The position numbers and the translations under genes were made by a program. A stretch of DNA of 64,000 bases, taken from Mageeibacillus sp. UBA5438 (GTDB lineage: Bacteria > Bacillota > Clostridia > Saccharofermentanales > DTU023). The notes below the pieces were generated by a model. That model did no database searches. It saw nothing but the letters and a program-made list of their open reading frames with translations, and was not told where the DNA came from. Positions 898 through 16,558 of the stretch are shown here, piece by piece (position 1 is the first letter of the stretch; each line of letters begins with the position of its first letter). The stretch is from the NCBI GenBank assembly GCA_002427535.1, contig DIRK01000058.1, forward strand, positions 811 through 64,810, given 5' to 3'.

Positions 898-1320
898 TTA
901 ATTGGCCCCATCACCCGCGATAAAAAAGGACAATTCGCCGCTCACGCATAAATCGCCATCGACACGCCCTTCACATTCAATGACATAGACATTCATCCTT
1001 CTGCGAAGTAAACGACTTTTAAACTCAATCGTGTCACCCGGCACCACCACACGGCGAAACTTCACCTTATTCATACCCGTAAAATACGGGATAAAATCCC
1101 CCTCAAAATCAATCAAAAGACAAGCCGACTGCCCCATCATCTCGCAGATAATAACGCCGGGCACGACCGGGTTATCAGGAAAATGCCCTTGTAAAAAAAA
1201 CTCATCGCCCCGCACCGTATAAGAGCCTTGCGCCAACCCCTCCTCGCAAAACGCCTCATCCACCAACAACATAGGCTCCCGGTGCGGAAGTATTTTTTTA
1301 ATCGCTTCTTTATCCATCAT
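898..1320 (-). CDS. fabZ: 3-hydroxyacyl-ACP dehydratase FabZ
   Basis: 140 aa hot-dog fold protein. Motifs LPHREPMLLVDE and GHFPDNPVVPGV. Start overlaps the stop of the upstream fabF remnant (ATGATGA). Confidence 0.9.
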   Translation of the reverse strand: MMDKEAIKKILPHREPMLLVDEAFCEEGLAQGSYTVRGDEFFLQGHFPDNPVVPGVIICEMMGQSACLLIDFEGDFIPYFTGMNKVKFRRVVVPGDTIEFKSRLLRRRMNVYVIECEGRVDGDLCVSGELSFFIAGDGAN

Positions 1321-1877
1321 GAATCTCCGATACGTTGGAACAAGACACCCGCGTTATGCCCACCGAAACCCAATGACAACGACAGGGCCTTGTCCACTCT
1401 TTGCGGCCTCGCCGTGTGCAAAATATAGTCAAGATCGCAATCAGGATCAGGCACCTTCAAACCAATGGTCGGGGGTAAAATCTCCGTTTCAAGCGCCTTA
1501 ATAGAAGCGATCGCCTCCACCGCGCCCGCGGCCCCCAGCATATGACCCACCATAGACTTTGTGGAACTCATCGGGATCCTGTAGGCCTGTTCACCCAACA
1601 CCGATCTCAACGCAAAACTCTCCGCCTTGTCATTTAAAGGCGTCGACGTTCCGTGCAGATTGATGTAAAAACAATCATCTATTTTCGCGCCCGCCTCTTC
1701 CATGGCAAGCTCAATCATCCGAATACTGCCCTCGGCCTCCGGATGCGGCGCTGTCACATGGTAAGCGTCACAGCTATTGCCATAGCCTGTCATCTCACAG
1801 TAAATCTTCGCGCCGCGCGCCACCGCGCGTTCGTACTCCTCCAACACAAGAGCTCCGGCGCCCTCCCGCATTGACAT
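1317..1877 (-). pseudogene. fabF: beta-ketoacyl-ACP synthase II (FabF), C-terminal ~45% only; 5' half missing
   Basis: The 186 aa ORF begins at the ..EGAGALVLEEYERAVARGAKIY.. region and keeps the two His motifs (HGTSTPLND, GHMLGAAG). The N-terminal half with the active-site Cys is absent. The upstream frame hits a stop at 1908-1910, and the next gene starts 56 nt away on the other strand. Confidence 0.75.
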
Positions 1878-1933: not shown

Positions 1934-3691
1934 ATGAACAAAATTGACTATGACATCCTGCAATACCTGCTCGGCCATACACAAACCACACAGCGAGACA
2001 TCGCGACAGCCTTGCGGCATTCGCTCGGCGCCATCAACAAAGCCATTCAACGCCTGAAATATAAAAACCTCATCGACGATGACAACCGCGTCCGCCCCAA
2101 GGTCAAAAAACTACAAGACTATTCCAAACCACGAAAAGCCGTCATCCTCGCCGCGGGCTTCGGCCTTCGAATGATCCCCTTCAACTTCGACACCCCCAAA
2201 GGCCTCCTGGAAGTCAAAGGCGAACTTCTGATCGAACGGCTCATCCGCCAGCTCAAAGAAAAGGATATTGACGAAATTCATATCGTCGTCGGGCACTTAA
2301 AAGAAAGCTACGAATACCTTATCGACCTCCACGGCGTCGAACTCATCGTCAACCGCGAATACGCGCGCAAAAACAACTTACACTCCCTTTTTCTCGCATC
2401 CGAACATTTAGAAAATACCTACATCCTACCCTGCGACCTCTACTTTTTAGAAAACCCCTTCTCGGCCTATGAATTTTACTCCTGGTACGCCTTAGGCGAC
2501 GAGCTTGAAGACCCGGGGAAGCTCCGCATGAACCGCTTCGGAGAACTCATCCAAACCAAACGCGACGAAAAAGGTCAAATCCTCTTAGGCCTTGCCTACC
2601 TGCACGCAAAGGAAGCCCCCTCCTTCAACGACCGCTTGCAATCCCTTGCCACAGACTCCCGTTCAGACGATGTTCCCTGGGAAGGCGTGCTAATAGAAGG
2701 AAATATCCCCTTCAAAGCCAAACGATTTCGACAAAACAGTTTCCACGCATTCAAAACCGTGGCGGACCTCCAGGCATTCGATGGCGACAGCCAACTCCCC
2801 GACAACCGATCCCTCACGCTCATCTCCGAGATCCTTGACACCTCCGTCCATGAAATCACCGGGATAAAGCCCATGAAAACAGGCATGACCAACCGCTCCT
2901 TTCTCTTCGACCACAAGGGGCAGACCTATGTCATGCGCCTCCCCGGCGAAGGCTCCGAAGCGCTCATCAACCGCCCACAAGAATACGAGGTCCACCAAGT
3001 TATAACCCGTGAAAAACTGGCCGATGAACTCGTCTACCTTGACCCCAAAACAGGCATTAAACTCGCGCAATTTCTGCCGAACGCACGTGTCTGCGACCCC
3101 CATAACGACGGCGATCTTCTCCGATGCATGACCCTCCTGAGAACATTCCACGAACAGCGCCTACAAGTCGACCACCCCTTCGACCTGTTCCAAAACATCC
3201 TTTTCTACGAACACTTAAGAGGCTCCGTCCCCTCCGTCTACCGTGACTACGAAAAGACCAAGGCCTCCGTCATGGCCCTGTTTGAATTCATCAAATCCTT
3301 TGAGCGCGAACAAGTCCTCTGTCACATCGACGCCGTACACGATAACTTCCTGTTCTACCGAGAAAATTGCGATGGCCCCGAACAAATCAAAATGATCGAC
3401 TGGGAATACGCCGGCATGCAAGACCCCCATGTCGACATCGCCATGTTCTCCATCTACGCCGGTTATAAAAAGGATGAAATCGATCACCTAATCGATCTTT
3501 ACTTCCAAAACTCATGCCCGCCCTTGATCCGGCTCAAAATCTACGCCTATGTCGCCATATGCGGCCTGTTATGGAGCAACTGGTGCGAATACAAGCGCCT
3601 GTTGGGCGTCGACTTTGGCGAATACTCCCTGAACCAGTACCGCTACGCCAAAGAGTATTCGCGGCTCGTCACAGAAAAAGGCAAAAAATGA
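1934..3691 (+). CDS. tri-domain fusion: wHTH + LicC-like CTP:phosphocholine cytidylyltransferase + LicA-like choline kinase (motifs intact)
   Basis: N-terminal HTH (TQRDIATALRHSLGAINKAIQRL). NTP-transferase loop ILAAGFGLRMIPFNFDTPKGLLEV. Kinase P-loop-like KTGMTNRSF..YVMRLPG, Brenner motif HIDAVHDN, ChoK motif MIDWEYAGMQDPHVDIAMF. Confidence 0.85.
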   Translation: MNKIDYDILQYLLGHTQTTQRDIATALRHSLGAINKAIQRLKYKNLIDDDNRVRPKVKKLQDYSKPRKAVILAAGFGLRMIPFNFDTPKGLLEVKGELLIERLIRQLKEKDIDEIHIVVGHLKESYEYLIDLHGVELIVNREYARKNNLHSLFLASEHLENTYILPCDLYFLENPFSAYEFYSWYALGDELEDPGKLRMNRFGELIQTKRDEKGQILLGLAYLHAKEAPSFNDRLQSLATDSRSDDVPWEGVLIEGNIPFKAKRFRQNSFHAFKTVADLQAFDGDSQLPDNRSLTLISEILDTSVHEITGIKPMKTGMTNRSFLFDHKGQTYVMRLPGEGSEALINRPQEYEVHQVITREKLADELVYLDPKTGIKLAQFLPNARVCDPHNDGDLLRCMTLLRTFHEQRLQVDHPFDLFQNILFYEHLRGSVPSVYRDYEKTKASVMALFEFIKSFEREQVLCHIDAVHDNFLFYRENCDGPEQIKMIDWEYAGMQDPHVDIAMFSIYAGYKKDEIDHLIDLYFQNSCPPLIRLKIYAYVAICGLLWSNWCEYKRLLGVDFGEYSLNQYRYAKEYSRLVTEKGKK

Positions 3692-4407
3692 CTGTACATC
3701 TTGCAAAACGCGCGATCGTCATGGCAGCGGGAAAAGGGACGCGACTTTTACCCTATACGGAGAACACGCCAAAGCCCCTCCTTCAGGTCAAAGGTCAGCG
3801 CATGATCGACTCCATCATCCGGGCGCTCCACTCCAGGGGCATCCATGAAATCTACATCGTCACCGGTTACTTAAAAGAACAGTTTGAAACACTGCCCCAA
3901 GAATACCCGGGCGTCACGCTCATCCATAACCCGTATTTTGAAAAAGCCAACAACATCTCCTCCCTCTTTGTCGCAAGAGCGCAGCTCGAGGATGTCATCC
4001 TCATGGACGGCGACCAGCTGATCGAAAACGAAGACGTCCTCGATCCTGTATTTGAAGGATCCTGTTACTGTGCCTTTCAACAACAAAACTTAAGGACGCG
4101 TGAGTGGATATTAGAGCTTACGGACGGGATTATCACAAAATGTCACCGGGAGGGAGGCGTCGCGGGCTGGCAGCTTCAAAGCGTCTCCTTTTGGACCAAA
4201 GAAGACGCCTTGAAACTGCAACAAGACCTCGAAGAGCTATTTATAAAAGAACGCCGCTTCGATCTATTTTGGGACGACATCGCCCTTTTCGAACGCCCCG
4301 AACGCTATCGACTGGGCATACGAAAAGTCAAAGCGGGCGACATCTTAGAAATCGACACCGTGGAAGAACTGCGCGCCGTTGACGCGCAATACGACCCTAC
4401 TAAATAA
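3688..4407 (+). CDS. licC: CTP:phosphocholine cytidylyltransferase (LicC-like), stand-alone
   Basis: ATG at 3688 overlaps the upstream stop (ATGA). The listed ORF 3514.. is an out-of-context extension. Canonical MAAGKGTRLLPYTENTPKPLLQV loop; MDGDQLI acidic motif; 239 aa. Confidence 0.85.
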   Translation: MTVHLAKRAIVMAAGKGTRLLPYTENTPKPLLQVKGQRMIDSIIRALHSRGIHEIYIVTGYLKEQFETLPQEYPGVTLIHNPYFEKANNISSLFVARAQLEDVILMDGDQLIENEDVLDPVFEGSCYCAFQQQNLRTREWILELTDGIITKCHREGGVAGWQLQSVSFWTKEDALKLQQDLEELFIKERRFDLFWDDIALFERPERYRLGIRKVKAGDILEIDTVEELRAVDAQYDPTK

Positions 4408-4422
4408 AGAAAGATAACGACC

Positions 4423-6021
4423 ATGAACCGCACCGCTTCTCACAAACGATCCCTTCGAACCCTCGTTCAAAACATCGACTGGTTGTCCACCCTCTTGCCC
4501 CTGGGCATCATACTGATGCTCACCTTCTTTCTCATCTTCTCCCCGGGACAGTCTACCCTGGTCATTGACCGCATCCGCGATTTCATCGGCAACGAACTGG
4601 GATCCTACTATATTCTATTAGGCCTGCTGTTCTTTTTCGGTTCACTCTACATCGCCTTTTCCCGATACGGTTCTATCCGTTTAGGGAAACTCGAAAAACC
4701 CGAATATTCGTCCTTCAAATGGGGCACCATGATCTTCACCTCCACCATGGCCGCCGACATCCTTTTCTATTCACTTTGCGAATGGGCGCTCTATAGCGGG
4801 GAAGACCACATTCAGGGATTGGGCAACCTCACGCTGTGGGCGCCGACCTATCCCCTCTTCCACTGGGGTCCCATCGCCTGGTCCTTCTACGTCGTGTTGG
4901 CGGTCGCCTTCGGCTTCATGTTGCATGTACGGGGCAAGAATAAACAAAAATTCTCAGAAGGCTGCCGACCCTTATTAGGTAAATACGTCGACAAGGCACC
5001 GGGGAAGATCATTGACCTGTTTTCCATCTTCGCGCTTTTGGCCGGAACCGCCACAACCTTCTCGCTCGCCACACCCCTTTTAAGCGCCGCTTTGGGACGC
5101 GTCTTAAACATCCCCGCTTCGTTAGAACTCACCCTCTTTGTCATGGTCACCACCGCAGTCGTGTACACCCTGGCCGTCTGGTTTGGCATGCGCGGCATCG
5201 CGCTTTTAGCCACAGGCTGCGTCTACTTATTCTTCCTGTTATTGGGCTACGTCCTTTTCGGAGGCGGAGAGACCGTCTACATCCTGGAGACCGGCATCGC
5301 GTCTTTAGGGAATCTCATTCAGAACTTTTTAGGCCTTGCGACCTGGACCGATCCCCTAAGGCAGACCCATTTCCCGCAAAACTGGACCATCTTCTACTGG
5401 GCCTACTGGATGGTCTGGTGCGTGGCGACCCCGTTTTTCATCGGGATTATCAGCCGGGGGCGCACGATCAAGAATGTCGTGCTGGGCGCCTATGGCTGGG
5501 GACTTGCCGGCACCTTCACCTCATTTATTATTTTAGGGAACTACGGCCTGGCCCAGGAGTTAAAACACGGCCTCGATATCTCAAGTCATATCGCCCGAAC
5601 AGGCAATATCCAGGAGGCGATCTTAAAAATCTTTGACACACTGCCCCTCCCCGCCTTCGGCCTTATTTTATTGGTCATCACGATGATCGCCTTTTACGCG
5701 ACCACCTTCGACGCGCTCACCATGGTCATCTCCTCCTACTCGTATAAGAAGCTCGAAGTCGGTAAAGAACCGCATAAACTCGTCCGCAGTTTCTGGGCGC
5801 TCTTGTTCATCCTATTGCCCATCGGGCTATTATTCGGAAGAAACTCCATGAACAGCTTGCAGTCGATCTCAATTATCGCGGCTTTCCCCATGGGCATCAT
5901 CGTGACCCTGATCGCGGCCAGTTTTTTAAAGGACGCCAATCACTATTTAAAAGGAGATTCAAAAACAGACGATCAGACACCCGTCGCAAGCGAGGGTTCC
6001 AAATCTTCCAACAAACGGTAG
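4423..6021 (+). CDS. BCCT family (betaine/carnitine/choline) transporter
   Basis: 532 aa polytopic membrane protein. BCCT-signature-like NWTIFYWAYWMVWCVATPFFIGIISRGRTIKN. Sits in the choline locus. Confidence 0.85.
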   Translation: MNRTASHKRSLRTLVQNIDWLSTLLPLGIILMLTFFLIFSPGQSTLVIDRIRDFIGNELGSYYILLGLLFFFGSLYIAFSRYGSIRLGKLEKPEYSSFKWGTMIFTSTMAADILFYSLCEWALYSGEDHIQGLGNLTLWAPTYPLFHWGPIAWSFYVVLAVAFGFMLHVRGKNKQKFSEGCRPLLGKYVDKAPGKIIDLFSIFALLAGTATTFSLATPLLSAALGRVLNIPASLELTLFVMVTTAVVYTLAVWFGMRGIALLATGCVYLFFLLLGYVLFGGGETVYILETGIASLGNLIQNFLGLATWTDPLRQTHFPQNWTIFYWAYWMVWCVATPFFIGIISRGRTIKNVVLGAYGWGLAGTFTSFIILGNYGLAQELKHGLDISSHIARTGNIQEAILKIFDTLPLPAFGLILLVITMIAFYATTFDALTMVISSYSYKKLEVGKEPHKLVRSFWALLFILLPIGLLFGRNSMNSLQSISIIAAFPMGIIVTLIAASFLKDANHYLKGDSKTDDQTPVASEGSKSSNKR

Positions 6022-7760
6022 TAGTCCTTGGCATAGCGAAACTTGTTCATGGGGAAGGCCCCCATGTTAACCCCGATCCGTTTTTTGTTCAGACTGCACA
6101 TGGTACAGAGCATCCCGCATAGCGCGATGCTCAAATACAGGCGGATCAATTCTTCTTTTGTCGCCGCGCGTCCCAGGTAATACGCAAGGGCCAATTCATG
6201 GCGCCCCCGGTCAAAGTCCGCGCGGTTACAGAACATGGCCACATCGAAAAAGGGGTCGTCCATGCCCGCAAAATCCCAATTGATCACGCGAAGGCCTCCG
6301 GTTGAAAGACGGATCACATGCTCCGCAATATATTCCCTGTGGCATAACACTTGGTCCACCGGAATTCGCTCTTTCAAGCGCAAAAGCGTCGCCATCTTCT
6401 CATGCATCTCATCGATGTCGCGAAAGGGGATGCCGCCCGCCCGGTTGACGCGCTGTTGGTAATCCAGATAACACTTTTGGGTATTGCAATGGTTGTTAAC
6501 TTGCAGTTTCCTGTCGTGGACGAGCGAAATGAGCCGCATACTGTCCAAAAGATCGCGGTCTCGATAGGGGTTCACCTTCGAGGAATGATCGTAATAATGG
6601 ATGATCCGAACACCCGTCTCAGTATCTAAACTCAACAGCTGTTCGGTCACTTCAAGGGGGCGCAAAAGATCGTAGACGGACTGAACCTCTGCATAATCGA
6701 CACAGGCATCTTCTTCTCCGTTCGGTATACGTAAAACGTATTCTTCTTCCCCGACACTGAACTTATATGCCTCGTGGCCGATTTCATCGAAGATAAGCTC
6801 CATCTCCTCGATCGCATCATGCGTTAGGCACTCGTTCATGGGGAAATGCTGAAGCACGCGTTGTTTCGCTTCTATCCGATAGCTTTTATCAAAGGCTCGC
6901 AGCTCATCGAGGGAGTTGAATGCATGGACTATTCCTGACAGCTCACGAGCTCTGATCGACAGGCCGTTGAAATGTTCCATGAGCACCTGCTCCCAATATT
7001 GACGACTCATCTCAGCTTCAAGGTAGTGCGCTTGCAATAACTTCTTGACGCTTTCGGCCGTGTTGCGATCCACATACGCGGGCCCGATAAGCGCGAGACA
7101 ATCCTGCCCGCCCAATTGGACATTTTGAATCCACCCTCTGGGGGTCACCTCCACCGCCCAAGCGGACACCGGCCCTTCGCGAAAGACACAAGCATGCCAG
7201 CTTTCCGGCTCATAATCGTGGAATATGTTGTCCTCCATATAGTGCTCCGCCATGAGCACATAGCTGTTGCCCAGATGTTCCAGCGCGTGGTACAGGCTCG
7301 AAAAATTTTCAAAGGTCGCGTAATCCGGGTTGTAGATGAGGCGGATACCGTAACGGTCAATCAGGTAGTCATAGGCTTCCAGATGGTTACCCGCCAGCAA
7401 ATAAATAGTATCGATGCCCTGCTCTTTCAACTGATCGATCTGGCGCTCAATCATGACCTCGCCTTTAACCTCGAGTAAACCCGCCGGCTGGGTGCCCATA
7501 AAGGGAAATGACGGAAATTTAAAAGTGGCGGCCAAAATAATGGCGTTTTCGACCCGATAGGTTTCAAGCCACGCGAGTCCCTTTTCGGTGACCCTTAGAT
7601 CATCCTTATTTCGTTCTAGAAACTGATTCGAAAGAGCGTCCTTGATCACCCGATTTACGGTGCCCAAAGACAGCTGACATTGTTCAGCAAGGCGCCGCTG
7701 CGTCAAAGAACCGTCTTTCAGTAATCCGCGAAGGATCGGAACCGCATTTACCGCATTCAT
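5973..7760 (-). CDS. wHTH + LicC-like + choline-kinase-like paralog with degenerate catalytic motifs (putative pseudoenzyme/regulator)
   Basis: Same architecture as 1934..3691. NTP loop is ILAATFKFPSFPFMGTQPAGLLEV (no GxGxR, no PK). Kinase P-loop replaced by DEIGHEAYKF. Brenner motif is HREYIAEH. ChoK motif is VINWDFAG (D to N). Confidence 0.8.
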   Translation of the reverse strand: MNAVNAVPILRGLLKDGSLTQRRLAEQCQLSLGTVNRVIKDALSNQFLERNKDDLRVTEKGLAWLETYRVENAIILAATFKFPSFPFMGTQPAGLLEVKGEVMIERQIDQLKEQGIDTIYLLAGNHLEAYDYLIDRYGIRLIYNPDYATFENFSSLYHALEHLGNSYVLMAEHYMEDNIFHDYEPESWHACVFREGPVSAWAVEVTPRGWIQNVQLGGQDCLALIGPAYVDRNTAESVKKLLQAHYLEAEMSRQYWEQVLMEHFNGLSIRARELSGIVHAFNSLDELRAFDKSYRIEAKQRVLQHFPMNECLTHDAIEEMELIFDEIGHEAYKFSVGEEEYVLRIPNGEEDACVDYAEVQSVYDLLRPLEVTEQLLSLDTETGVRIIHYYDHSSKVNPYRDRDLLDSMRLISLVHDRKLQVNNHCNTQKCYLDYQQRVNRAGGIPFRDIDEMHEKMATLLRLKERIPVDQVLCHREYIAEHVIRLSTGGLRVINWDFAGMDDPFFDVAMFCNRADFDRGRHELALAYYLGRAATKEELIRLYLSIALCGMLCTMCSLNKKRIGVNMGAFPMNKFRYAKDYYRLLEDLEPSLATGV

Positions 7761-7796
7761 AAAAACCCCAATTACGCATAATTATAACAATAAAAG

Positions 7797-9584
7797 TTAT
7801 TCATAAATGTCCGATAAAACCCCTCTGCCCTCCAACAAGATGTAATAATCCTTCATAAAGCGGTACATCCGCACCGGATAGTCGCCCAAATCAAGCCCGT
7901 GTCGCTTCTTATGCAGCCCCCACATGGACCACAGCATCCCGCCGAGCGCGGCGTAAAGGTAGAGTCTTACGATTTCCGTCTCATCGGGATCGCGCCCCAG
8001 ATGCAGACGAAGCGCCAGGAGGAGGCGTTCTTCATTAAAGTTTGCGTCGATTGCGAACATGGCCACATCCATCAGGGGATCCGACATACCCGAAAACTCC
8101 CAGTTCGTAATGAACAGGCCGCCCGTCTTTTTGCGGATGACATTTGCGTAAAGATAGTCGCCGTGACACAACACCGGGTCAACATCGAGATGCGCTTTTA
8201 AAAAAAGCAGTCGCTCCATCTTCTGCTTCATCTCCTCAATATCGCGGAAAGGCACACCCCCTGTCTGCTCAACCAGTGATTCATAATGAGAAAACATCTT
8301 CACAATATCGTAATGACGATCGATTCGAAGCTTTCTGTCGTGTATCTGCCGGATGAGCTGCATGCTATCCGAAAGATCACGGTCGTTCATGGGATCCACA
8401 TAGTGGGATTCGTCCGCAAAACGTGTAATGCGAATACCGCTCGACACATCGCTGTCCAACAATTCCTCCGCCACCTCAAGCGGTGCCAGGATGTCGTAGA
8501 CATGCTTCACACTCGCATGGTCGTACAAAGAAACCTCTTCTTCACCGGGAATGCGGATGACATAGGCATCCTCACGCACGTCGAAGCGATACATCTCGCT
8601 GTCCCACTCGTCCTCAAGCAGTTCAATGGATTCGATGTCCTCCACTAGAAGCGGGGCGGCGGACGGAAAATGGGCGATGATCTCTCTTTTTAGATCATCG
8701 TAATGCGATTCATCGTAATGGCGCACCTGATCAAGATGGTTGAACTCATACACATAACCTGTCTGCACATTGGCCTTCATTTGGAAATCGTTGAAATTTT
8801 CCTTCAAAATCTCCTCCCAGTAGTAATGCGTCGCCTCACCCCGGCCGTAATAGTCATTGAGCAATATTTTCAAACGCTCGGACATCTCACGGTTCAGATA
8901 AGCCGGTCCCACCACCGTCAGGCTGTCCTTCCCCCCGACCCGAATGTTTTTTATCCAACCCATCGGGGAGGTGCTGACACACCAGTCATTGGTGTCACCT
9001 TCGCAATACACACAGCAGTACCAGCTTGTGGCCTCATAAAGGTTAAAGAAATTCTTCTCGATATAGGTGTCCGCCACCAAAATATAGGTATTGTCGAGTT
9101 TGTCGGCGGCATGGTAGAGGCTCGCGTAGTTATTAATCGTCGCAAAATCGGGATTGTAAACCAGCGTGACACCGTAGCGGTCAACCAGGTAGTCATAGGC
9201 CTCCATCTGGTAGCCCACCACCAGGGTAATGTCGAAAATTCCACGATCTTGGAGCTGTTCGATCTGGCGCTCGATCATGATCTCGCCTTTGACCTTCAAA
9301 AAACCGCCGGGTATTTCATCCACCGTCCCCAGCGCGGAAGAGGTGAAGCCCGCAGCCAATACGATCGCGTTTTTCACTTTGTAGGGTTCAAGAAAAACAA
9401 GTCCCTCATCTGTCACACGCAAACCGTCGTCAAGGCGCAGCAAATAATGTTGGTCGAGCGCCCGTTGAATCACGCGGTTAATCGTACCCAGCGACATGCC
9501 GCATGTGGCCGCAAGATTTCTTTGGGTCTGTTGAGGATCCTTTAATAACTCCCTCAGAATGATGACAGTGTTTCCTTGACTCAT
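7797..9584 (-). CDS. wHTH + LicC-like + choline-kinase-like paralog with degenerate catalytic motifs
   Basis: Likely start MSQGNTV at 9584; the listed ORF start 9707 would overlap the upstream paralog. NTP loop VLAAGFTSSALGTVDEIPGGFLKV. P-loop region DEWDSEMYRF. HGDYLYAN retained, but ITNWEFSG (D to N). Confidence 0.8.
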   Translation of the reverse strand: MSQGNTVIILRELLKDPQQTQRNLAATCGMSLGTINRVIQRALDQHYLLRLDDGLRVTDEGLVFLEPYKVKNAIVLAAGFTSSALGTVDEIPGGFLKVKGEIMIERQIEQLQDRGIFDITLVVGYQMEAYDYLVDRYGVTLVYNPDFATINNYASLYHAADKLDNTYILVADTYIEKNFFNLYEATSWYCCVYCEGDTNDWCVSTSPMGWIKNIRVGGKDSLTVVGPAYLNREMSERLKILLNDYYGRGEATHYYWEEILKENFNDFQMKANVQTGYVYEFNHLDQVRHYDESHYDDLKREIIAHFPSAAPLLVEDIESIELLEDEWDSEMYRFDVREDAYVIRIPGEEEVSLYDHASVKHVYDILAPLEVAEELLDSDVSSGIRITRFADESHYVDPMNDRDLSDSMQLIRQIHDRKLRIDRHYDIVKMFSHYESLVEQTGGVPFRDIEEMKQKMERLLFLKAHLDVDPVLCHGDYLYANVIRKKTGGLFITNWEFSGMSDPLMDVAMFAIDANFNEERLLLALRLHLGRDPDETEIVRLYLYAALGGMLWSMWGLHKKRHGLDLGDYPVRMYRFMKDYYILLEGRGVLSDIYE

Positions 9585-9607
9585 ACGCACCCCGTCTACT
9601 TGTATAA

Positions 9608-11368
9608 TTATACCATGGCAAGCGGGTAAAAGTCCTTCAAATAGCGGTACATCTTTAAGGGATAGGCTCCAAGATCGAAACCTGAACGCTTTCTTTGCAG
9701 CCCCCACATGGACCAGAGAAGACCCCCCAAAGCGACATAAAGATACAGGCGGATCAACTCTTCTTGTGTGGGCGCACGGCCCAAATATAAAGCAAGCGAA
9801 AGATCCAAGCGCGCTTGGTCAAAATAGGAGTAAATGCCAAACATCGCCACATCCATAAGCGGGTCGCTCATGCCGGCAAATTCCCAATTAATAATGAACA
9901 AACCGCCCGTGGTTTTACGGACGACATGGGCGTACAGATAATCACCGTGGCAAAGCACAGGCTCGATATTGAGACGCTCCTTGATTTTTAGAAGATTTCT
10001 CATCTTGGCCTTGACATCGTCAATGTCACGAAACGGCATGCCGCCCGTGCGGTACACCTTGTTTTCATAGTAAGCCGTCATTTTCTCAATATCGTAATCG
10101 TAGTCGACCTTAAGCTTCCTGTCATGGATCAGGCGTATCAGCTGCATGCTGTCAGCAAGGTCCCGGTCATCGAAGGGATCGACAAAAGACGAACGCTCGA
10201 CATAGCGCGTGACACGGATCCCTGTCGGGATATCAAAATTTAACACCTCATCGGTCACCTCTAAGGGCGCCAATAGCTCATAGGTTTGTTTGACCTTGGC
10301 ATTGTCAATAAACGCTTCGCAGTTTTTATCCGGTACGCGAAGCACATACTCATGGCGGTCGATCACAAATTTGTAAACGTCATAGGCGACTTCATCCGCT
10401 AATGGCGTGATTTTTTCAATTTTTTCAGATGAAATCGACCACGCATCCGCGTAGTACGCCGCAATCTGATCCCTGACTTCTTTTAGGTAAGCCTTGTCAT
10501 AGGCATGCACATCTTCAATACGTGTGAATTCATAGACCTTACCCGTCTGGATATTCGCCCTTTTCGGGAAATCTTCAAAATGCTCCAAAAGGCGCGCCTG
10601 CCAATAGGCGTTTGTCATCTCCGCTTCGCTGATATTGTGCTCAAAAAAGGATCGGATATTTTCACTCATGAAACAATCGTAGTAGGCCGGCCCCACGACG
10701 GTCATGCAATTTTTGCCTCCCAAGCGCATATTTTTTATTTTGCCGCCGGGCGTGACATCGACACACCAGTCCGAGGTCTCCCCCTCACAATAGCTCACCG
10801 AATACCAGGCATAGGGTTCGTAGCGATGAAAAAGATTCTCCTCTAAGTAGCTGTCCGCCACGAGCAGGTAAGTATTATCCAGATAATCCAAGGCATACAT
10901 GAGACTTGCGAAGTTGTTGATTTTGCTGAAGTCGGGATTGTAGATCAATTTGACCCCGTAGCGGTCAACTAAATAGTCATAGCTTTCCATCCGAAAACCG
11001 ACGACAATGGCGATTTCACGAATCCCGCGCTCCAAAAGCTGTTCAATCTGCCGCTCAATCATGATCTCCCCTTTCACCTCGAGGAAACCGGGCGGCATGG
11101 TGGCAGATAGGGATAGAGCGCTTGCTGAAAAACCCGCGGCAAGAATAATGGCGTTTTTCACCTGATAGGGTACAAGCCAATCGAAACCGGCTTCGGTGAC
11201 ATAAAGTCCCTCTTCGCGGCGTTCAAGATATTTTTTTTCGATGGCACGGTTGACGACATGATTTACGGTCCCCAATGAGAGACCGCAACGATCCGCCAGC
11301 TGCCTTTGAGACAGACGGCCGTTTTCAATCAATTCACGAAGTATCGGGACCGCATTTTCAGCCTTCAT
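9608..11368 (-). CDS. wHTH + LicC-like + choline-kinase-like paralog with degenerate catalytic motifs
   Basis: Likely start MKAENAVPIL at 11368, with GAGG ~10 nt upstream. NTP loop ILAAGFSASALSLSATMPPGFLEV. P-loop region DEVAYDVYKF. HGDYLYAH (N to H). IINWEFAG (D to N). Closest to the 7797..9584 paralog. Confidence 0.8.
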   Translation of the reverse strand: MKAENAVPILRELIENGRLSQRQLADRCGLSLGTVNHVVNRAIEKKYLERREEGLYVTEAGFDWLVPYQVKNAIILAAGFSASALSLSATMPPGFLEVKGEIMIERQIEQLLERGIREIAIVVGFRMESYDYLVDRYGVKLIYNPDFSKINNFASLMYALDYLDNTYLLVADSYLEENLFHRYEPYAWYSVSYCEGETSDWCVDVTPGGKIKNMRLGGKNCMTVVGPAYYDCFMSENIRSFFEHNISEAEMTNAYWQARLLEHFEDFPKRANIQTGKVYEFTRIEDVHAYDKAYLKEVRDQIAAYYADAWSISSEKIEKITPLADEVAYDVYKFVIDRHEYVLRVPDKNCEAFIDNAKVKQTYELLAPLEVTDEVLNFDIPTGIRVTRYVERSSFVDPFDDRDLADSMQLIRLIHDRKLKVDYDYDIEKMTAYYENKVYRTGGMPFRDIDDVKAKMRNLLKIKERLNIEPVLCHGDYLYAHVVRKTTGGLFIINWEFAGMSDPLMDVAMFGIYSYFDQARLDLSLALYLGRAPTQEELIRLYLYVALGGLLWSMWGLQRKRSGFDLGAYPLKMYRYLKDFYPLAMV

Positions 11369-11390
11369 TGACTTAGCCTCACATGTGTTC

Positions 11391-11426
11391 AATATAGCAT
11401 ATGAAAGGCCGCCTTTTGAACATATG
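11391..11426 (-). promoter_or_regulatory. candidate promoter (TTCAAA-18-TGcTATATT) overlapped by an imperfect palindrome CATATGAAAGGC/GCCTTTtgaaCATATG
   Basis: On the minus strand, TATATT is the complement of 11391-11396 and TTCAAA is the complement of 11415-11420. The inverted repeat spans 11398-11426. It lies in the 150-bp divergent region between the paralog operon and the yidC-tagF-like gene. Confidence 0.3.
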
Positions 11427-11518
11427 ATCCATTCTCGGACTGGCGTGGCTGTGGTACCATCTAGGGGATCGATCGCGCCCATAAACAGCGCTCGAGACAG
11501 GGGGATTTTTGTCAGCCT

Positions 11519-13726
11519 ATGTCCGTCATTAACACCGTTTTCGGCATCCCGTTCGGATACCTCATGTACCTTCTCTACCAGCTTTCCAAAAACTACGGCA
11601 TGGCCATTCTTTTGTTTACGCTGGTCACAAAAATCCTAATGTTTCCCCTGTCCTTAATCTCACAAAAAAATGCCATCATCATGGCCAAAATACAACCGGC
11701 CTTAGACGACATCCGCCGCTTTCACGCGGGCAACAACCCCCTCATCATGGAGGAACAAAAAAAACTGTTCAAAGAAGAGGGCTACAGCACATGGAAAAGC
11801 CTTGTCCCCCTCCTTGTCCAGATCCCCATCATCTTGGGGCTCATCCATGTCATCTACCATCCGCTGCAGCATATCCTCCGCCTGGACGCGGCCACCCTCG
11901 ATTTACTGTTGAATAAAACAGCTCAACTGTTGAATACGACCCGCGAGGCTTTAGGCTCGGGCGCCGAGTTGAAAATCATCGAAATGGTCGCCGAAAACCC
12001 GGCGCTCTTCCAAGGGATGAGCGGGGTCGAAAAGATCCTTGCCTTGGACATGCAGTTCTTGGGCGCAGATCTCAGCCATATCCCAAGCTTCTCCTCACTT
12101 CTTATCTTATTTCCCATTTTGTCGGGCGCAAGCGCCCTTCTTCTCGCCGTCTGCCAGAATCGCCATTACGTATTGCAGATCACGCAGAGCGCTTTTAGAA
12201 AATGGTCAATCAGCCTTTTCCTTGTGGCCTTCTCCTTTTTCTTCGCGCTCATCCTGCCCGCAGGTGTAGGACTCTACTGGATCGCGGGAAACCTTTTGTC
12301 CGTCGCGGTGCTTTTCATATGTAATGGGATCTACGACCCCAAAAAACTTGTACCCGAAAGTTACTTCCAACCCAAAGGTAAGCGAAGCCGAAAGGAAAAA
12401 GAGGAAGAAAAAACACGCGAAAAGGCAAAGAAAGCCCGTCAAAAAGAAGACCGCAGACGTTTTATGGCAATAAAAGGCAAACAGCTTGTCTTCTACGCGG
12501 AAAACGCCAGCTATTACCGCTATTTCAAAGGATTCATCGACTACATCCTGAAGCACTCCGAACTTGTCATCCACTATGTCACAAGTGACCCCGAGGATCC
12601 TGTTTTAAGAAACGATCACCCGCGCCTTTTAGGCTACTACATCGGCCCGGTCGCCCTCATTTCCTTCATGATGCGCCTGGACGCCGACATGCTCGTCATG
12701 ACCATGCCCGACCTTGAAACCTACCATATCAAGCGCTCCATCGTACGAAAAGACGTTGAATACGTCTACCTGGACCACGGGATGACGAGTTTCCACCTGA
12801 TGCTGAAAAAGGGAGCCCTCGATCATTTCGACACCATCTTCTGCTACGGGCCCAACCACGCCGATGAAGTGCGTGAGACGGAACGCGTGTACGGATTGCC
12901 GCGGAAAAAACTCGTGAAAACGGGCTATCCGCTCCTCGACCAAATGATCGAAGGCGCCAAGGCCCTGGGGCCCATTCAAAACGACCCCAAGGTCATCATG
13001 ATCGCCCCCTCTTGGCAAAAGGACAACATCATGGACTTCTGTCTCGATGATTTAATCATGCCTCTTTTGCAAACAGGCTACCGCGTGATCCTCCGACCGC
13101 ACCCTGAATACGTGAAGCGCTTCCCCGACAAGATGGAAAGGCTCAAGACGCGCTACGAAAAGCACCTCGGCCCTTATTTTGACATTCAAACCGAATACCA
13201 AAAAACAGAATCGGTGTACAGCGCCGACCTGGTCATCACGGACTGGTCCTCCATCGCGCAGGAATTTTCCTACGCCACAAAAAAACCCTCACTTTTTATT
13301 AACACGCCCATGAAAATCATGAACCCTGAATACCAAAAAATACCGCTTGTCCCCCTCGACATTTCACTGCGCGATGAAATCGGCCGCTCCCTCGACTTGG
13401 AACAGCTGGATACCCTGCCCGCCCTGATTGAGTCCCTCATGAACGAAGGTGAAGCTTGGTGTCGTCGCATCGAACAGGTCGTCTCGGATAATATCTATGA
13501 CGTCGGCCGCGCGGCCGAAGGCGGAGGGCGCTACATCATCGAAACACTCTCGAAGAAAAAGCACGTTCAAAAGGAAAATGATGAGAAGCAAAACGCCCTT
13601 TTGGAACTCGATCACACATGGGAAGCCATGCGCAGTCAACTGAGCCAAGAAGAGGCCGTAATGCTATTAAAACAACTGGAAGATTTCCAAAGGATCACAA
13701 ACGAACAGGAGGGCGATCATGCGTAA
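11519..13726 (+). CDS. fusion protein: YidC/Oxa1-type membrane insertase domain + TagB/TagF-type CDP-alcohol phosphotransferase domain
   Basis: Residues 1-~270 resemble YidC (NYGMAILLFTLVTKILMFPLSL, MAKIQPALDDI, LPAGVGLYWIAGNLLSV; ~5 TM). Then a Lys/Glu-rich linker (KGKRSRKEKEEEKTREKAKKARQKE). The C-terminal ~430 aa carry TagF-family motifs (MIAPSWQ, ILRPHPEY, VITDWSSIAQEFSYATKKPSLFI). Confidence 0.75.
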   Translation: MSVINTVFGIPFGYLMYLLYQLSKNYGMAILLFTLVTKILMFPLSLISQKNAIIMAKIQPALDDIRRFHAGNNPLIMEEQKKLFKEEGYSTWKSLVPLLVQIPIILGLIHVIYHPLQHILRLDAATLDLLLNKTAQLLNTTREALGSGAELKIIEMVAENPALFQGMSGVEKILALDMQFLGADLSHIPSFSSLLILFPILSGASALLLAVCQNRHYVLQITQSAFRKWSISLFLVAFSFFFALILPAGVGLYWIAGNLLSVAVLFICNGIYDPKKLVPESYFQPKGKRSRKEKEEEKTREKAKKARQKEDRRRFMAIKGKQLVFYAENASYYRYFKGFIDYILKHSELVIHYVTSDPEDPVLRNDHPRLLGYYIGPVALISFMMRLDADMLVMTMPDLETYHIKRSIVRKDVEYVYLDHGMTSFHLMLKKGALDHFDTIFCYGPNHADEVRETERVYGLPRKKLVKTGYPLLDQMIEGAKALGPIQNDPKVIMIAPSWQKDNIMDFCLDDLIMPLLQTGYRVILRPHPEYVKRFPDKMERLKTRYEKHLGPYFDIQTEYQKTESVYSADLVITDWSSIAQEFSYATKKPSLFINTPMKIMNPEYQKIPLVPLDISLRDEIGRSLDLEQLDTLPALIESLMNEGEAWCRRIEQVVSDNIYDVGRAAEGGGRYIIETLSKKKHVQKENDEKQNALLELDHTWEAMRSQLSQEEAVMLLKQLEDFQRITNEQEGDHA

Positions 13727-15653
13727 AAAGATGTCCGCTTTCCTCCTTTTCACAGGCTACTTCCTTATCCGGACGAAGCCCGTACACGCCTACATTGATC
13801 CCGCGACGACGACCTATCTCATCCAAATTTTGTCGGCGCTTGTCATCACATTGGGCGTGACCGTCGGCGTGTTTTTCGGCCGCATCCGACAGTTCTTTTT
13901 AAACTTCCGCGTCCGCATGACAGAACTTCGCATCCGCGTGTTCGAGCAAAAAAGAGAGGACAAGCAACCGCAAAAAATTGAAAAACAAGAAATCTCGTTG
14001 CCCTTCATAAAACGCTTCCTCCTCGCCTTACCAACCTCCGTCGCCCTCTTTTTCACCCTCGTAATCTTTGGCGTGTATGAGCTTTACATGAACAATCAAG
14101 AAGCCTTTATGTTCCCCCTCACATCCGTTCTCTTGTCGCTCATTCTCATCGCTCTTTTTGGAACGCTTTTATTGGCCCTCCTGATTGCTGTGTTTCGACA
14201 CCATACCTTTTCGACGGTTCTGTCGATTGCCTTTGGACTTCTATTGGCCTTCAACCTTGAGGGCAATCTGTTGAACCTTTCTTTGGGCGAACTGACAGGC
14301 GACAGCATCCCTTGGGAACTGTACCGGACAGAGGCGATCGTTAACCTGTTCGTCTGGATCGTACTCATCGGCCTTGTGGTTGTGATCGGCCACTACTTAA
14401 AAAACTTTTGGAAAGTCCTTGTAAGACTCGCCCCCGCCGTCATCCTTATGGCACAGATCATCGCCATGATCGTGATCTCCGCCACCGCGGCGCCCTCCAC
14501 ATTAGAGGACAACCTGTATTTGTCACGCCAGGGTATTTATGAAGTCGGCAAAAAGGAGAACATCGTCGTCATTGTGCTGGATCGTCTCGACAACTGGTTC
14601 ATCAATGACGTGCTGAAAGAAGAACCCGATTTTTTCGACCGTATGGACGGTTTCACGCGCTTCACGAACAACATCTCGCTTTACAGCCAAACCTTCCCCT
14701 CCGTGGCCAATATGCTGACCGGTGAACGCTACGACTTTAACGACTACTGGGCCGATTATTTGGAAAATGCTTGGAAAACAGGTGATTTCATCCCCCGATT
14801 AAAAGGGGCGGGTTACGAAAACCGCTTCTATATGGAGCGTAGCTACGCCTACCGGGACGCCCAAGATCTTCTAGGCCTTGCGGATAACATCGTCGAAGGA
14901 AAAATCAGCATCGACCGCAAGGAGGCCGTCGGGCAATTTATGGGACTCTCCTCCTACCGCTATGTCCCCTTGGCCTTAAAACCCTTCTTTTGGACCTCCA
15001 CTGAGGCATTCGGTAAGATCATCGATGTCAGTTTAGAAACAGCCCCCTATATCACAGATGACCTCGCCTTCTTCAAAGGTTTAAAAGAAGAGCGGTTGAA
15101 AATTGGGGAGGCCGAGAAGAATTTCCTGTTCATTCATTTGAATGGCCCCCATCCTCCCTACAATTTAGATGAATACGGAAACGAAGCGGAGCCCGGGCAG
15201 TCCTCCTATAAAATTCAGACGAAGGGGAGCTTTCGCATTGTCTTTGAATATTTGGACCAATTAAAGGCTCTCGGACTCTACGAGGACGCGACCATCATTG
15301 TGACAGGCGACCACGGGGCGCGTTTATCTGACACACAGCCTTTGAGCTCCGCCATTGTGACAGGCCTGTTCGTCAAACCGAAAGGCGCGATCGGCGAACC
15401 CATTAAGATCAACCGCGCGCCCTTGACCTCGGACAATCTGCGGGCCACCGTCATCGAAGCGGCGGGCATCGATGCCCCCCAGTACGGCCAGAGCTATTTT
15501 GAGGTGTCGCCCGATGAATTCGCCGTCCGCTTCCTCTTCCACCGCCTGTACGGTTCAGAGGACCAGCCGGCACGAGTCGAGGTATACCAGGTGCTGGGAG
15601 ACGCAAACCAGTTCAACAACTGGATTCTTGTGGAAGAGGAGATTATCCGGTAA
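13719..15653 (+). CDS. polytopic membrane protein with extracytoplasmic LtaS/sulfatase (alkaline-phosphatase superfamily) domain
   Basis: Start overlaps the upstream stop by 8 nt. Multi-TM N-terminal half. C-terminal motifs IVVIVLDRLDNWF, YSQTFPSVANMLTG (candidate Thr nucleophile), LNGPHPPY, IIVTGDHGARL. Confidence 0.7.
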   Translation: MRKKMSAFLLFTGYFLIRTKPVHAYIDPATTTYLIQILSALVITLGVTVGVFFGRIRQFFLNFRVRMTELRIRVFEQKREDKQPQKIEKQEISLPFIKRFLLALPTSVALFFTLVIFGVYELYMNNQEAFMFPLTSVLLSLILIALFGTLLLALLIAVFRHHTFSTVLSIAFGLLLAFNLEGNLLNLSLGELTGDSIPWELYRTEAIVNLFVWIVLIGLVVVIGHYLKNFWKVLVRLAPAVILMAQIIAMIVISATAAPSTLEDNLYLSRQGIYEVGKKENIVVIVLDRLDNWFINDVLKEEPDFFDRMDGFTRFTNNISLYSQTFPSVANMLTGERYDFNDYWADYLENAWKTGDFIPRLKGAGYENRFYMERSYAYRDAQDLLGLADNIVEGKISIDRKEAVGQFMGLSSYRYVPLALKPFFWTSTEAFGKIIDVSLETAPYITDDLAFFKGLKEERLKIGEAEKNFLFIHLNGPHPPYNLDEYGNEAEPGQSSYKIQTKGSFRIVFEYLDQLKALGLYEDATIIVTGDHGARLSDTQPLSSAIVTGLFVKPKGAIGEPIKINRAPLTSDNLRATVIEAAGIDAPQYGQSYFEVSPDEFAVRFLFHRLYGSEDQPARVEVYQVLGDANQFNNWILVEEEIIR

Positions 15654-15658
15654 AACCT

Positions 15659-16558
15659 TTAGTGACCCGGCGTTCTGAAACGATCGAAGAAATCCGAAGA
15701 TAAAAGCGGATTGGCGGATACGCCTGAAACAAGTTCATTGTAACGCTTCGTAATGGCCTCACCGAGCGGCAGGTCGGGGAAGATCGCGTAGCGCAGATAA
15801 AAATCGAAAAGATCCACACCCGAATCATAAATTTCGCCCGCGATATCGGAGATAAAATGACGGCTGTTCGGAAGCGCGATATCCGAAATAAGCGGCACGC
15901 GGCTCCAGATCACACGCCATGAACCGATGGAAATCACCGGCAACGGGATGGGCCGGCGGTTTTTTTGCCGCTCACTGTCGCGGACGAAGCGCATGTCCTC
16001 CAAGATTACGCATAAATCAGACAGTGCTTCCGCGACCGACGAGCGCGGATAGCTTTGCTGCAATGTCAACCACCCGCATAAATACAGATAGTGGCAGGCA
16101 CGCAGACGGATGAGATTTTGGATTTGCGCCAGTTCATCGCGGCGCTTCAGCGCCGCAAGCGTGGGAAACAACATGCACAGATCGCGATAACTCAAGCTGT
16201 CCGCAAAATGCTCTAACTGCGCCCTGGTCTTCACCTGCTTTAGTTGAGTGGAAAGCCAGGTCGCGTGAGAGGGCGTATGTTCGCAGAGTGTTTCCGTCGG
16301 CAGAGGGTGCTTTTCACGGCATCCCTCGAGCGCTTCTTCTAAAGTCTTGTAAATAAGCGGGACGGGCCTTGCTAACCTCGGTCGAGGAACCGGAGAGCTA
16401 ACGCGTACGGGCGGCGCTTCAATCTCTAGCGGCCGGCGCCTCGTCGAAGGCTGACGCCTTTTGGGCGCGATTGAATTCTCCGCTTCCGGCAACCGGAGGG
16501 TCACCGGCCGAATAGCGCGGTTTTTTTCCTCATCGTCTTTTAACAGACGATCATCCAT
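15659..16558 (-). CDS. hypothetical protein with Pro/Arg-rich N-terminus
   Basis: 299 aa with no motif I recognise. Its ATG is embedded in the upstream gene's terminal codons (cATGGATGA), indicating translational coupling. Confidence 0.5.
   Translation of the reverse strand: MDDRLLKDDEEKNRAIRPVTLRLPEAENSIAPKRRQPSTRRRPLEIEAPPVRVSSPVPRPRLARPVPLIYKTLEEALEGCREKHPLPTETLCEHTPSHATWLSTQLKQVKTRAQLEHFADSLSYRDLCMLFPTLAALKRRDELAQIQNLIRLRACHYLYLCGWLTLQQSYPRSSVAEALSDLCVILEDMRFVRDSERQKNRRPIPLPVISIGSWRVIWSRVPLISDIALPNSRHFISDIAGEIYDSGVDLFDFYLRYAIFPDLPLGEAITKRYNELVSGVSANPLLSSDFFDRFRTPGH

Follow-up and report, generated by a model that had tools for sequence, protein, structure and literature searches.

How could a bacterium that appears to make cytidine diphosphate (CDP)-choline decorate its surface with phosphocholine without LicD? 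This question is raised by a choline island at positions 1934-15653 of a 64,000-nucleotide stretch of contig DIRK01000058.1 from the anaerobic bacterium Mageeibacillus sp. UBA5438 (Bacillota, Clostridia, Saccharofermentanales); we refer to the whole stretch as the window. The Lic pathway consists of LicB, LicA, LicC, and LicD, to which the pneumococcus adds the flippase TacF. The island shares choline import, LicA-type phosphorylation, and LicC-type activation to CDP-choline with this pathway as it occurs in Streptococcus pneumoniae and Haemophilus influenzae. However, it carries a BCCT-family transporter where these species use LicB, its genome gave no hit for LicD, its LicC and LicA domains are fused behind a winged helix-turn-helix (wHTH) domain, and the candidate transferases linked to it are a YidC-TagF-like fusion protein and an LtaS-like enzyme.

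When displayed on bacterial surfaces, phosphocholine and aminoethylphosphonate (AEP) influence immune recognition as well as colonization. To our knowledge, LicD is the sole accepted transferase for these two groups, and we know of no enzyme identified as fixing phosphonates to the envelope. The module built around the fusion protein, which databases label merely "YidC", is a concrete candidate for this missing enzymatic step, widespread and unannotated, and the window presents it as a clean case in a very small genome without hits for LicD, TagD, or cholinephosphotransferase (CPT). A previous sequence-only reading had proposed that the choline genes are wired to the TagF-like and LtaS-like enzymes; synteny, natural fusions, and the lack of a LicD hit argue for this link, and the outcome of each computational check it suggested was in its favor. 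Judged from sequence, the module probably decorates the cell surface with phosphocholine or, in other species, with a phosphonate. We give about even chances to the more specific proposal that the island achieves phosphocholine decoration independently of LicD by a two-step route, a proposal built on observed gene content, synteny, natural fusions, folds, and conserved catalytic residues, and on known alternative enzymes not being found.

Based on the open reading frame (ORF) listing and Pfam, the block comprises three transcription units, with the genes at the positions previously given. Unit 1 on the plus strand (1934-3691, 3688-4407, 4423-6021) holds the choline supply genes, and unit 3 on the plus strand (11519-13726, 13719-15653) holds the candidate transferases. 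Unit 2 on the minus strand (5973-7760, 7797-9707, 9608-11482) consists of three paralogs of the gene at 1934-3691, which were missing from the earlier gene list. The features of units 1 and 3 are as follows.

1934..3691, plus strand: wHTH (residues 1-47), LicC-like cytidylyltransferase (68-250), and LicA-like choline kinase (305-572); Pfam, PDB matches 4R77 and 1JYK
3688..4407, plus strand: stand-alone LicC, CTP:phosphocholine cytidylyltransferase-like; 1JYK, 5.8e-32 over residues 7-232
4423..6021, plus strand: BCCT-family transporter; Pfam BCCT (PF02028), 6e-120
11519..12343, plus strand: YidC/Oxa1 core, residues 1-275, five transmembrane helices; Pfam 60KD_IMP, 8.6e-29
12473..13726, plus strand: TagB/TagF-like GT-B phosphotransferase domain (residues 319-660) and variable helical tail; Pfam Glyphos_transf, 3.8e-13
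13719..13913, plus strand: N-terminal module of the LtaS-like gene, aligning with a separate membrane protein of 64-106 amino acids (aa) in other lineages
14004..15653, plus strand: LtaS/EptA-type enzyme with a five-transmembrane core (residues 96-256) and an extracytoplasmic alkaline-phosphatase-superfamily domain (266-644); Pfam Sulfatase, 2.5e-13

Conservation of the module and other candidate consumers of CDP-choline

Two scans of one-genome-per-species contigs yielded 122 usable loci, in 72 of which the YidC-TagF homolog was flanked on each side by 5 kb or more. Relatives of the fusion were found in at least 593 species, and carriers include the cultured gut bacteria Roseburia inulinivorans, Eubacterium uniforme, and Bittarella massiliensis. 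Among the 72 well-flanked loci, the most constant neighbor was a sulfatase-fold membrane protein beside the fusion (66 loci), a LicC-like nucleotidyltransferase lay within 10 kb in 60, and LicD was found beside the fusion in none. Neighbor matches were on the same strand in 185 of 190 cases (first 50 loci). The two sub-blocks are thus co-conserved across related genomes, a point on which the sequence-only reading had made its proposal depend, and recurrence of the same gene association in well over 100 loci of other genomes indicates that it is more than chance. The association also extends to single polypeptides. Locus L025 encodes one protein of 1241 aa with YidC, Glyphos_transf, and Sulfatase domains, and about 20 of 23 matches of at least 1288 aa combined the same three domains.

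The loci differ in their supply genes. A LicA-like kinase, often together with BCCT, was present in 26 of the 72 (choline type), whereas 25 carried phosphoenolpyruvate (PEP) mutase (Ppm), phosphonopyruvate decarboxylase (Ppd), and AEP transaminase beside a LicC-like (PntC-like) gene (AEP type), a cassette confirmed by Pfam in Eubacterium uniforme and Lachnospiraceae bacterium G11; a further 13 had the nucleotidyltransferase only. The order in Oscillospiraceae is YidC-TagF, small ORF, licA, licC, and BCCT, and a BCCT homolog comes after licC in 21 of the 122 related loci. When 48 fusion proteins were placed on a quick maximum-likelihood tree, at least two clades were of the AEP type and at least three of the choline type; the linkage to a LicC-type enzyme has therefore outlasted repeated swaps of the supply genes. 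What both cassettes have in common is a small head group activated by a cytidine nucleotide, and this is the strongest argument that the TagF-like domain uses such a donor.

The AEP-type loci connect the module to phosphonyl-tailoring (Pnt) clusters, with which it shares cytidine monophosphate (CMP) activation by a LicC-like enzyme (PntC): its sister loci in Lachnospiraceae are Ppm/Ppd/AEP-transaminase/PntC-like clusters, and the present window is the choline version. LicD-like transferases were proposed for the last Pnt step by Rice et al. 2019 (PMC6697681), where TagF, YidC, and sulfatase-fold partners are unmentioned, and an earlier grouping placed phosphonate clusters that contain several sulfatases among putative phosphonolipid clusters (PMC8942020). 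Our search of the searchable literature returned no description of the fusion or of its link to Lic or Pnt genes. As a separate observation, two AEP-type loci (L035:6819-8114 and L049:12943-14250) encode a PEP mutase with a CTP_transf_like domain fused at its N terminus; they also have a separate LicC-like gene, so these clusters encode two different cytidylyltransferases.

We further searched for other enzymes that could consume CDP-choline or supply a different donor. As previously claimed, neither LicD nor CDP-OH_P_transf is present in the block (Pfam, positions 1934-15653). In the genome (1.43 Mb in 66 contigs, 92.6% complete), LicD (PF04991) gave no hit, while the control L. lactis gave a match. 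Likewise, neither phosphatidylcholine synthase (Pcs) nor a CPT-like enzyme was found there. The genome's CDP-OH_P_transf (PF01066) genes are two PgsA/ClsA-like genes of about 200 aa each, located on other contigs and unlinked to the island; one is pgsA (150 bits against a cut-off of 109), and the other is pgsA/ClsA-like and below the cut-off. No glycerol-3-phosphate cytidylyltransferase (TagD) was found in the genome, the one true IspD-like copy lies unlinked on another contig, and the island gene is the sole Glyphos_transf member. No other lic-like genes were detected elsewhere in the genome, and the supply genes are confined to the island. With LicD, TagD, and CPT missing from such a small genome, CDP-choline has no other recognizable consumer. 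A related known route is that of Treponema denticola, in which LicCA and a CPT lead to phosphatidylcholine. Its LicC-LicA fusion has the same domain order as that of the island; however, the island protein has an extra N-terminal wHTH, and the CDP-alcohol transferases of this genome are PgsA-like, with no choline phosphotransferase found.

Among 18 genomes of the same genus, 16 contained the fusion and 2 contained LicD. In at least six congeners (G032, G033, G037, G039, G041, and G047), no more than about 3 kb separated a LicA-like gene from the fusion, and in congener G042 a LicA-like gene was located 13 kb from LicD on a contig other than that of the fusion. LicD was more frequent in 30 more distant carriers (23 genomes) and was never linked to the fusion; one of these unlinked copies belongs to a Wzy-type polysaccharide cluster that also encodes RmlA, Glf, and glycosyltransferases. 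These patterns do not fit a licD encoded elsewhere as the conserved partner of the island genes, the counter-scenario raised by the sequence-only reading.

The nearest relative of the window is locus L001, from an uncultured Clostridia metagenome-assembled genome (MAG) of an anaerobic membrane bioreactor, with a 99% identical protein. More distant homologs carry the labels Fastidiosipila or Saccharofermentanales. Loci L003, L005, L030, L092, and L113 are near-identical to Oscillospiraceae loci, yet they come from MAGs labeled Barnesiella, Bacteroidaceae, Flexilinea, and Caulobacteraceae; these labels are probably binning errors rather than signs of cross-phylum transfer.

The candidate transferases and the choline supply genes

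The fusion gene (11519-13726, plus strand) joins 60KD_IMP (YidC) to Glyphos_transf, and its AF2 model, based on a 72-sequence alignment, had a pLDDT of 90.5. In the C-terminal part, Glyphos_transf (PF04464) scored 49.6 bits against a cut-off of 22.1, and the top Foldseek match was TagF (3L7I; E 1.2e-9, probability 1.00), followed by Cps3D, TarL, and Bcs3. A phmmer search of this domain against PDB sequences gave no match, and the fusion profile matched YidC entries only, so that the kinship to TagF rests on Pfam and fold. The catalytic histidines of TagF are H444 and H584. In the island family, the candidate counterparts H420 (LDHG) and H528 (RPHP) are invariant across an alignment of 72 sequences, and S498-W499-Q500 and T574-D575-W576-S577 are invariant as well. 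The domain shares with TagB/TagF/TarF/TarL enzymes and the capsule polymerases Cps3D and Bcs3 the GT-B TagF fold, a Glyphos_transf score above the cut-off, and conserved His residues in HG and HP motifs; its TDWSS resembles TDYSS, and PSWQ stands in place of what we take to be the family's PTWR-like motif. It differs from them in its fusion to a YidC core and in the genome's having no CDP-glycerol supply that we could find.

The five transmembrane helices that precede the TagF-like domain point to a cytoplasmic placement, in which it would lie on the same side as CDP-choline. Because choline and AEP head groups cannot be polymerized, the domain, with CDP-choline or CMP-AEP as its putative donor, must be a single-transfer decorator. 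A precedent exists in FtaD (CD0244) of Clostridioides difficile, considered here together with FtaB: it is a TagF-like enzyme encoded with a nucleotidyltransferase, and it uses the non-polyol donor CDP-N-methylthreonine for a single transfer, with transfer of phospho-N-methylthreonine from the CDP donor reported in vitro (bioRxiv 10.64898/2026.02.12.704994). FtaD differs in being free-standing and soluble, in having O-GlcNAc on flagellin as its acceptor, and in lacking a YidC half, an LtaS-like partner, and a small membrane protein. Given this precedent, use of CDP-choline by a TagF-family enzyme would plausibly extend what is already known and would not amount to a new principle.

The N-terminal half is YidC-like by profile (PF02096 60KD_IMP, 101 bits; TIGR03592, 95.8 bits against a cut-off of 84.3) and could be aligned to residues 336-438 and 466-531 of Escherichia coli YidC. 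In this alignment, K38 occupies the position of E. coli R366, the groove Arg, and Q101, P103, and N258 are kept. Columns conserved in at least 90% of sequences numbered 72 of 275 in the YidC half and 109 of 342 in the catalytic domain. Those of the YidC half include several polar intramembrane residues, and T34, T37, K38, Q101, Q213, N214, and N258 form a conserved hydrophilic groove. The genome has a second, ordinary housekeeping YidC on contig C27.

The downstream gene encodes a protein with a PF00884 score of 50.4 bits and an AF2 pLDDT of 91. In the model, five helices make up a membrane core, and the catalytic domain that comes after it would face outward. Foldseek matches included 3LXQ, LtaS (2W5R and 4UOR), PbgA, and MCR-1, with a Vibrio alkaline phosphatase (AP)-superfamily protein among them. 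D288, D291, T325, H473, H478, D531, and H532 are conserved and, by sequence, are expected to form the metal site and the Thr nucleophile as in an active transferase. The five-transmembrane core, the outward AP-fold domain, the Thr nucleophile, and the Asp/His metal ligands are features shared with LtaS, EptA/MCR-1, and PptA, although the island enzyme has an extra N-terminal module and very low sequence similarity to them (for LtaS, phmmer E of about 0.08). LtaS/EptA-type enzymes pass a phospho-head group from a membrane lipid to an extracytoplasmic acceptor. A second sulfatase-fold gene of the genome, an open frame of about 780 aa at G000:C1:24840-27179 (minus strand), is nearer to classical LtaS-like proteins than the island gene is. 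It may be an ordinary lipoteichoic acid (LTA) synthase and could supply the acceptor polymer.

The fusion and LtaS-like genes overlap by 8 nt (13719-13726), as the sequence-only reading had noted, and are translationally coupled, with an AGGAGG six bases upstream of the second ATG. The extra N-terminal module adds a further component. In Oscillospiraceae and Lachnospiraceae, a small membrane protein of 64-106 aa is encoded directly 3' of the fusion gene, and small ORFs of this kind from L003, L008, L011, L012, L022, and L035 can be aligned to the LtaS-like protein over its residues 1 to about 65. A24, Y25, D27, P28, Y33, and G46 are invariant between the module and these ORFs, and the motif occurs once in the genome. 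New for this window, therefore, by alignment, the first 65 or so residues of the LtaS-like protein correspond to a small membrane protein encoded separately elsewhere. With the small protein joined to the LtaS-like enzyme, two genes suffice here to encode the complete set of three recurring module components.

The supply genes are close to known Lic enzymes. For the LicA domain of the fused gene, the closest solved relative is pneumococcal LicA (4R77; 9e-29 over residues 305-572), PF01633 matched at 7.5e-15, and the Brenner HxDxxxxN and DxE motifs are present. The fused LicC domain matched pneumococcal LicC (1JYK) at 4e-26. In the alignment, this gene retains the GFGLRM loop, TPK, HIDAVHDN, and IDWEY motifs, and the LicC-LicA fusion is apparently active. 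Of the two apparently competent cytidylyltransferases claimed previously, the stand-alone enzyme stands, its motifs being fully canonical; the fused copy has the nucleotide-binding loop and Lys but keeps only one of the two Asp residues in the IDADN region. The stand-alone gene starts at the ATG at 3688 rather than at 3514, giving an ATGA overlap with the upstream stop. From its family, the BCCT transporter is presumed to be the choline importer in place of LicB; the transporter of the block is BCCT rather than LicB, and a LicB search covering the whole genome was not run. In a 98%-identical relative (G040:C11:50681-51571), the counterpart of the apparently active wHTH-LicC-LicA gene is in pieces with in-frame TGA and TAA stops, reflecting either pseudogenization or an assembly error.

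Proposed route and rival explanations

From neighborhood, fusions, and folds, we infer the donor, the acceptor, the order of the steps, and any role of YidC beyond anchoring. Choline would enter via BCCT, the LicA domain would phosphorylate it, and the LicC enzymes would convert the product to CDP-choline. At the inner face, the TagF-like domain, held at the membrane by the YidC-like half, would transfer phosphocholine from CDP-choline to a membrane-bound acceptor, which may be a lipid or a lipid-linked glycan. At the outer face, the LtaS-like enzyme would act on this product, most probably moving the head group to the final envelope acceptor. In other lineages, CMP-aminoethylphosphonate would be supplied to the same machine instead.

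Lipid scrambling by YidC has been published (PMC11047089). This raises the possibility that the lipid intermediate crosses the membrane with its phosphocholine or AEP head group carried in the YidC groove, making the fusion a self-contained "load and flip" enzyme, a speculative addition that we regard as rather unlikely. If true, the YidC half would represent a new use of the Oxa1 fold, a substrate-specific lipid translocator feeding the outer LtaS-like transferase.

Several observations weigh against the two-step route. In eight of the 72 well-flanked loci, no activating gene lies near the pair. Many species carry LicD as well as the module, and their CDP-choline may serve both. In the TagF-like domains, only one residue tracks choline versus AEP supply (F583/Y), and it is confounded by phylogeny. 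A rough regular expression for choline-binding repeats (GW...WYY) found none in the genome, with the PF01473 profile silent even in controls. Finally, the genome is 92.6% complete, so absences from it are not proof.

The alternative that survives best makes the TagF-like domain a direct analog of LicD acting on the final lipid-linked polymer or glycolipid, while the LtaS-like enzyme would build or ligate the polymer (for example, with glycerol phosphate from phosphatidylglycerol) without any relay between the two. TagB/TagF enzymes act on lipid-linked polymers, FtaD transfers straight to its final acceptor, and the more classical LtaS-like gene on C1 makes LTA-type chemistry plausible. However, the core module of most loci contains neither a glycosyltransferase nor a Wzx/TacF-type flippase, and a sulfatase-fold partner that accompanies the fusion in 66 of 72 loci and is fused to it in about 20 protein clusters fits hand-over of a substrate better than parallel action. 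We consider this alternative fairly improbable.

Another possibility is that the pathway ends at a lipid. The TagF-like domain would then be a non-canonical CDP-choline:diacylglycerol (or glycolipid) cholinephosphotransferase with a phosphatidylcholine-like product, which the LtaS-like enzyme would remodel or recycle. The genome search that found neither CPT nor Pcs is in line with this view, as are the self-contained nature of the module, which has no glycan genes, and the putative phosphonolipid clusters with several sulfatases mentioned above. Yet a conserved, fused, outward-facing transferase with an intact Thr/metal site would be left unexplained, and we regard the lipid end point as quite unlikely; the same holds for its corollary that the Lachnospiraceae product would be a phosphonolipid.

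The neighborhood itself may also mislead. In this case, the pair would use another donor to build a polymer of glycerol phosphate or ribitol phosphate, and the choline genes would serve osmoprotection, regulation, or an unrecognized transferase. The Pfam name of the domain is indeed CDP-glycerol glycerophosphotransferase, BCCT transporters often carry osmolytes, and the eight loci without a nearby activating gene would fit. On the other hand, no TagD was found and the sole true IspD-like gene lies on another contig, LicC is kept although CDP-choline has no osmoprotective role, and the LicC-type linkage persists despite repeated cassette swaps, which together make this explanation very unlikely.

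Finally, we find it hardly tenable that the YidC half works as an insertase or chaperone devoted to the small membrane protein and the polytopic LtaS-like partner, with the TagF-like domain merely riding along: the half keeps K38, Q101, P103, and N258 and equals the catalytic domain in its degree of conservation, and the housekeeping YidC on C27 leaves the island copy free to specialize, but the constant fusion to a cytoplasmic transferase and the link to activating genes would go unexplained, and such a role would be compatible with the two-step route rather than opposed to it.

Eroded paralogs and flanking genes

The three genes of unit 2 are as follows.

5973..7760, minus strand: wHTH-LicC-LicA paralog 1, eroded catalytic motifs; alignment
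7797..9707, minus strand: wHTH-LicC-LicA paralog 2, eroded catalytic motifs; alignment and Pfam
9608..11482, minus strand: wHTH-LicC-LicA paralog 3, eroded catalytic motifs, divergent from the yidC-tagF gene; alignment and Pfam

In the alignment, all three lack the GxGxR loop and the TPK lysine, and the Asp that binds metal in the kinase DxE motif is replaced by Asn, suggesting that they are probably not enzymes. Positions 6428-7831 of the window (about 1.4 kb), which cover most of paralog 1, have no counterpart in L001, while the flanks show 93-96% DNA identity. L001 therefore has two eroded paralogs where the window has three, and copy number varies between near-identical genomes. Paralog 1 is convergent with the BCCT gene, and their 3' ends overlap by 49 nt (window 5973-6021). 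Promoter and terminator scans gave results no better than those for shuffled sequences.

At the left edge of the island, a 186-aa ORF at 1317-1877 (minus strand) has only a C-terminal ketoacyl-synthase domain (PF02801) and represents a truncated fabF-like remnant. On the right side, two overlapping genes of 299 aa and 510 aa (15659-18083, minus strand) belong to no Pfam or NCBIfam family, with weak coiled-coil-type matches only for the 510-aa gene. Both are kept in L001 at 93-96%.

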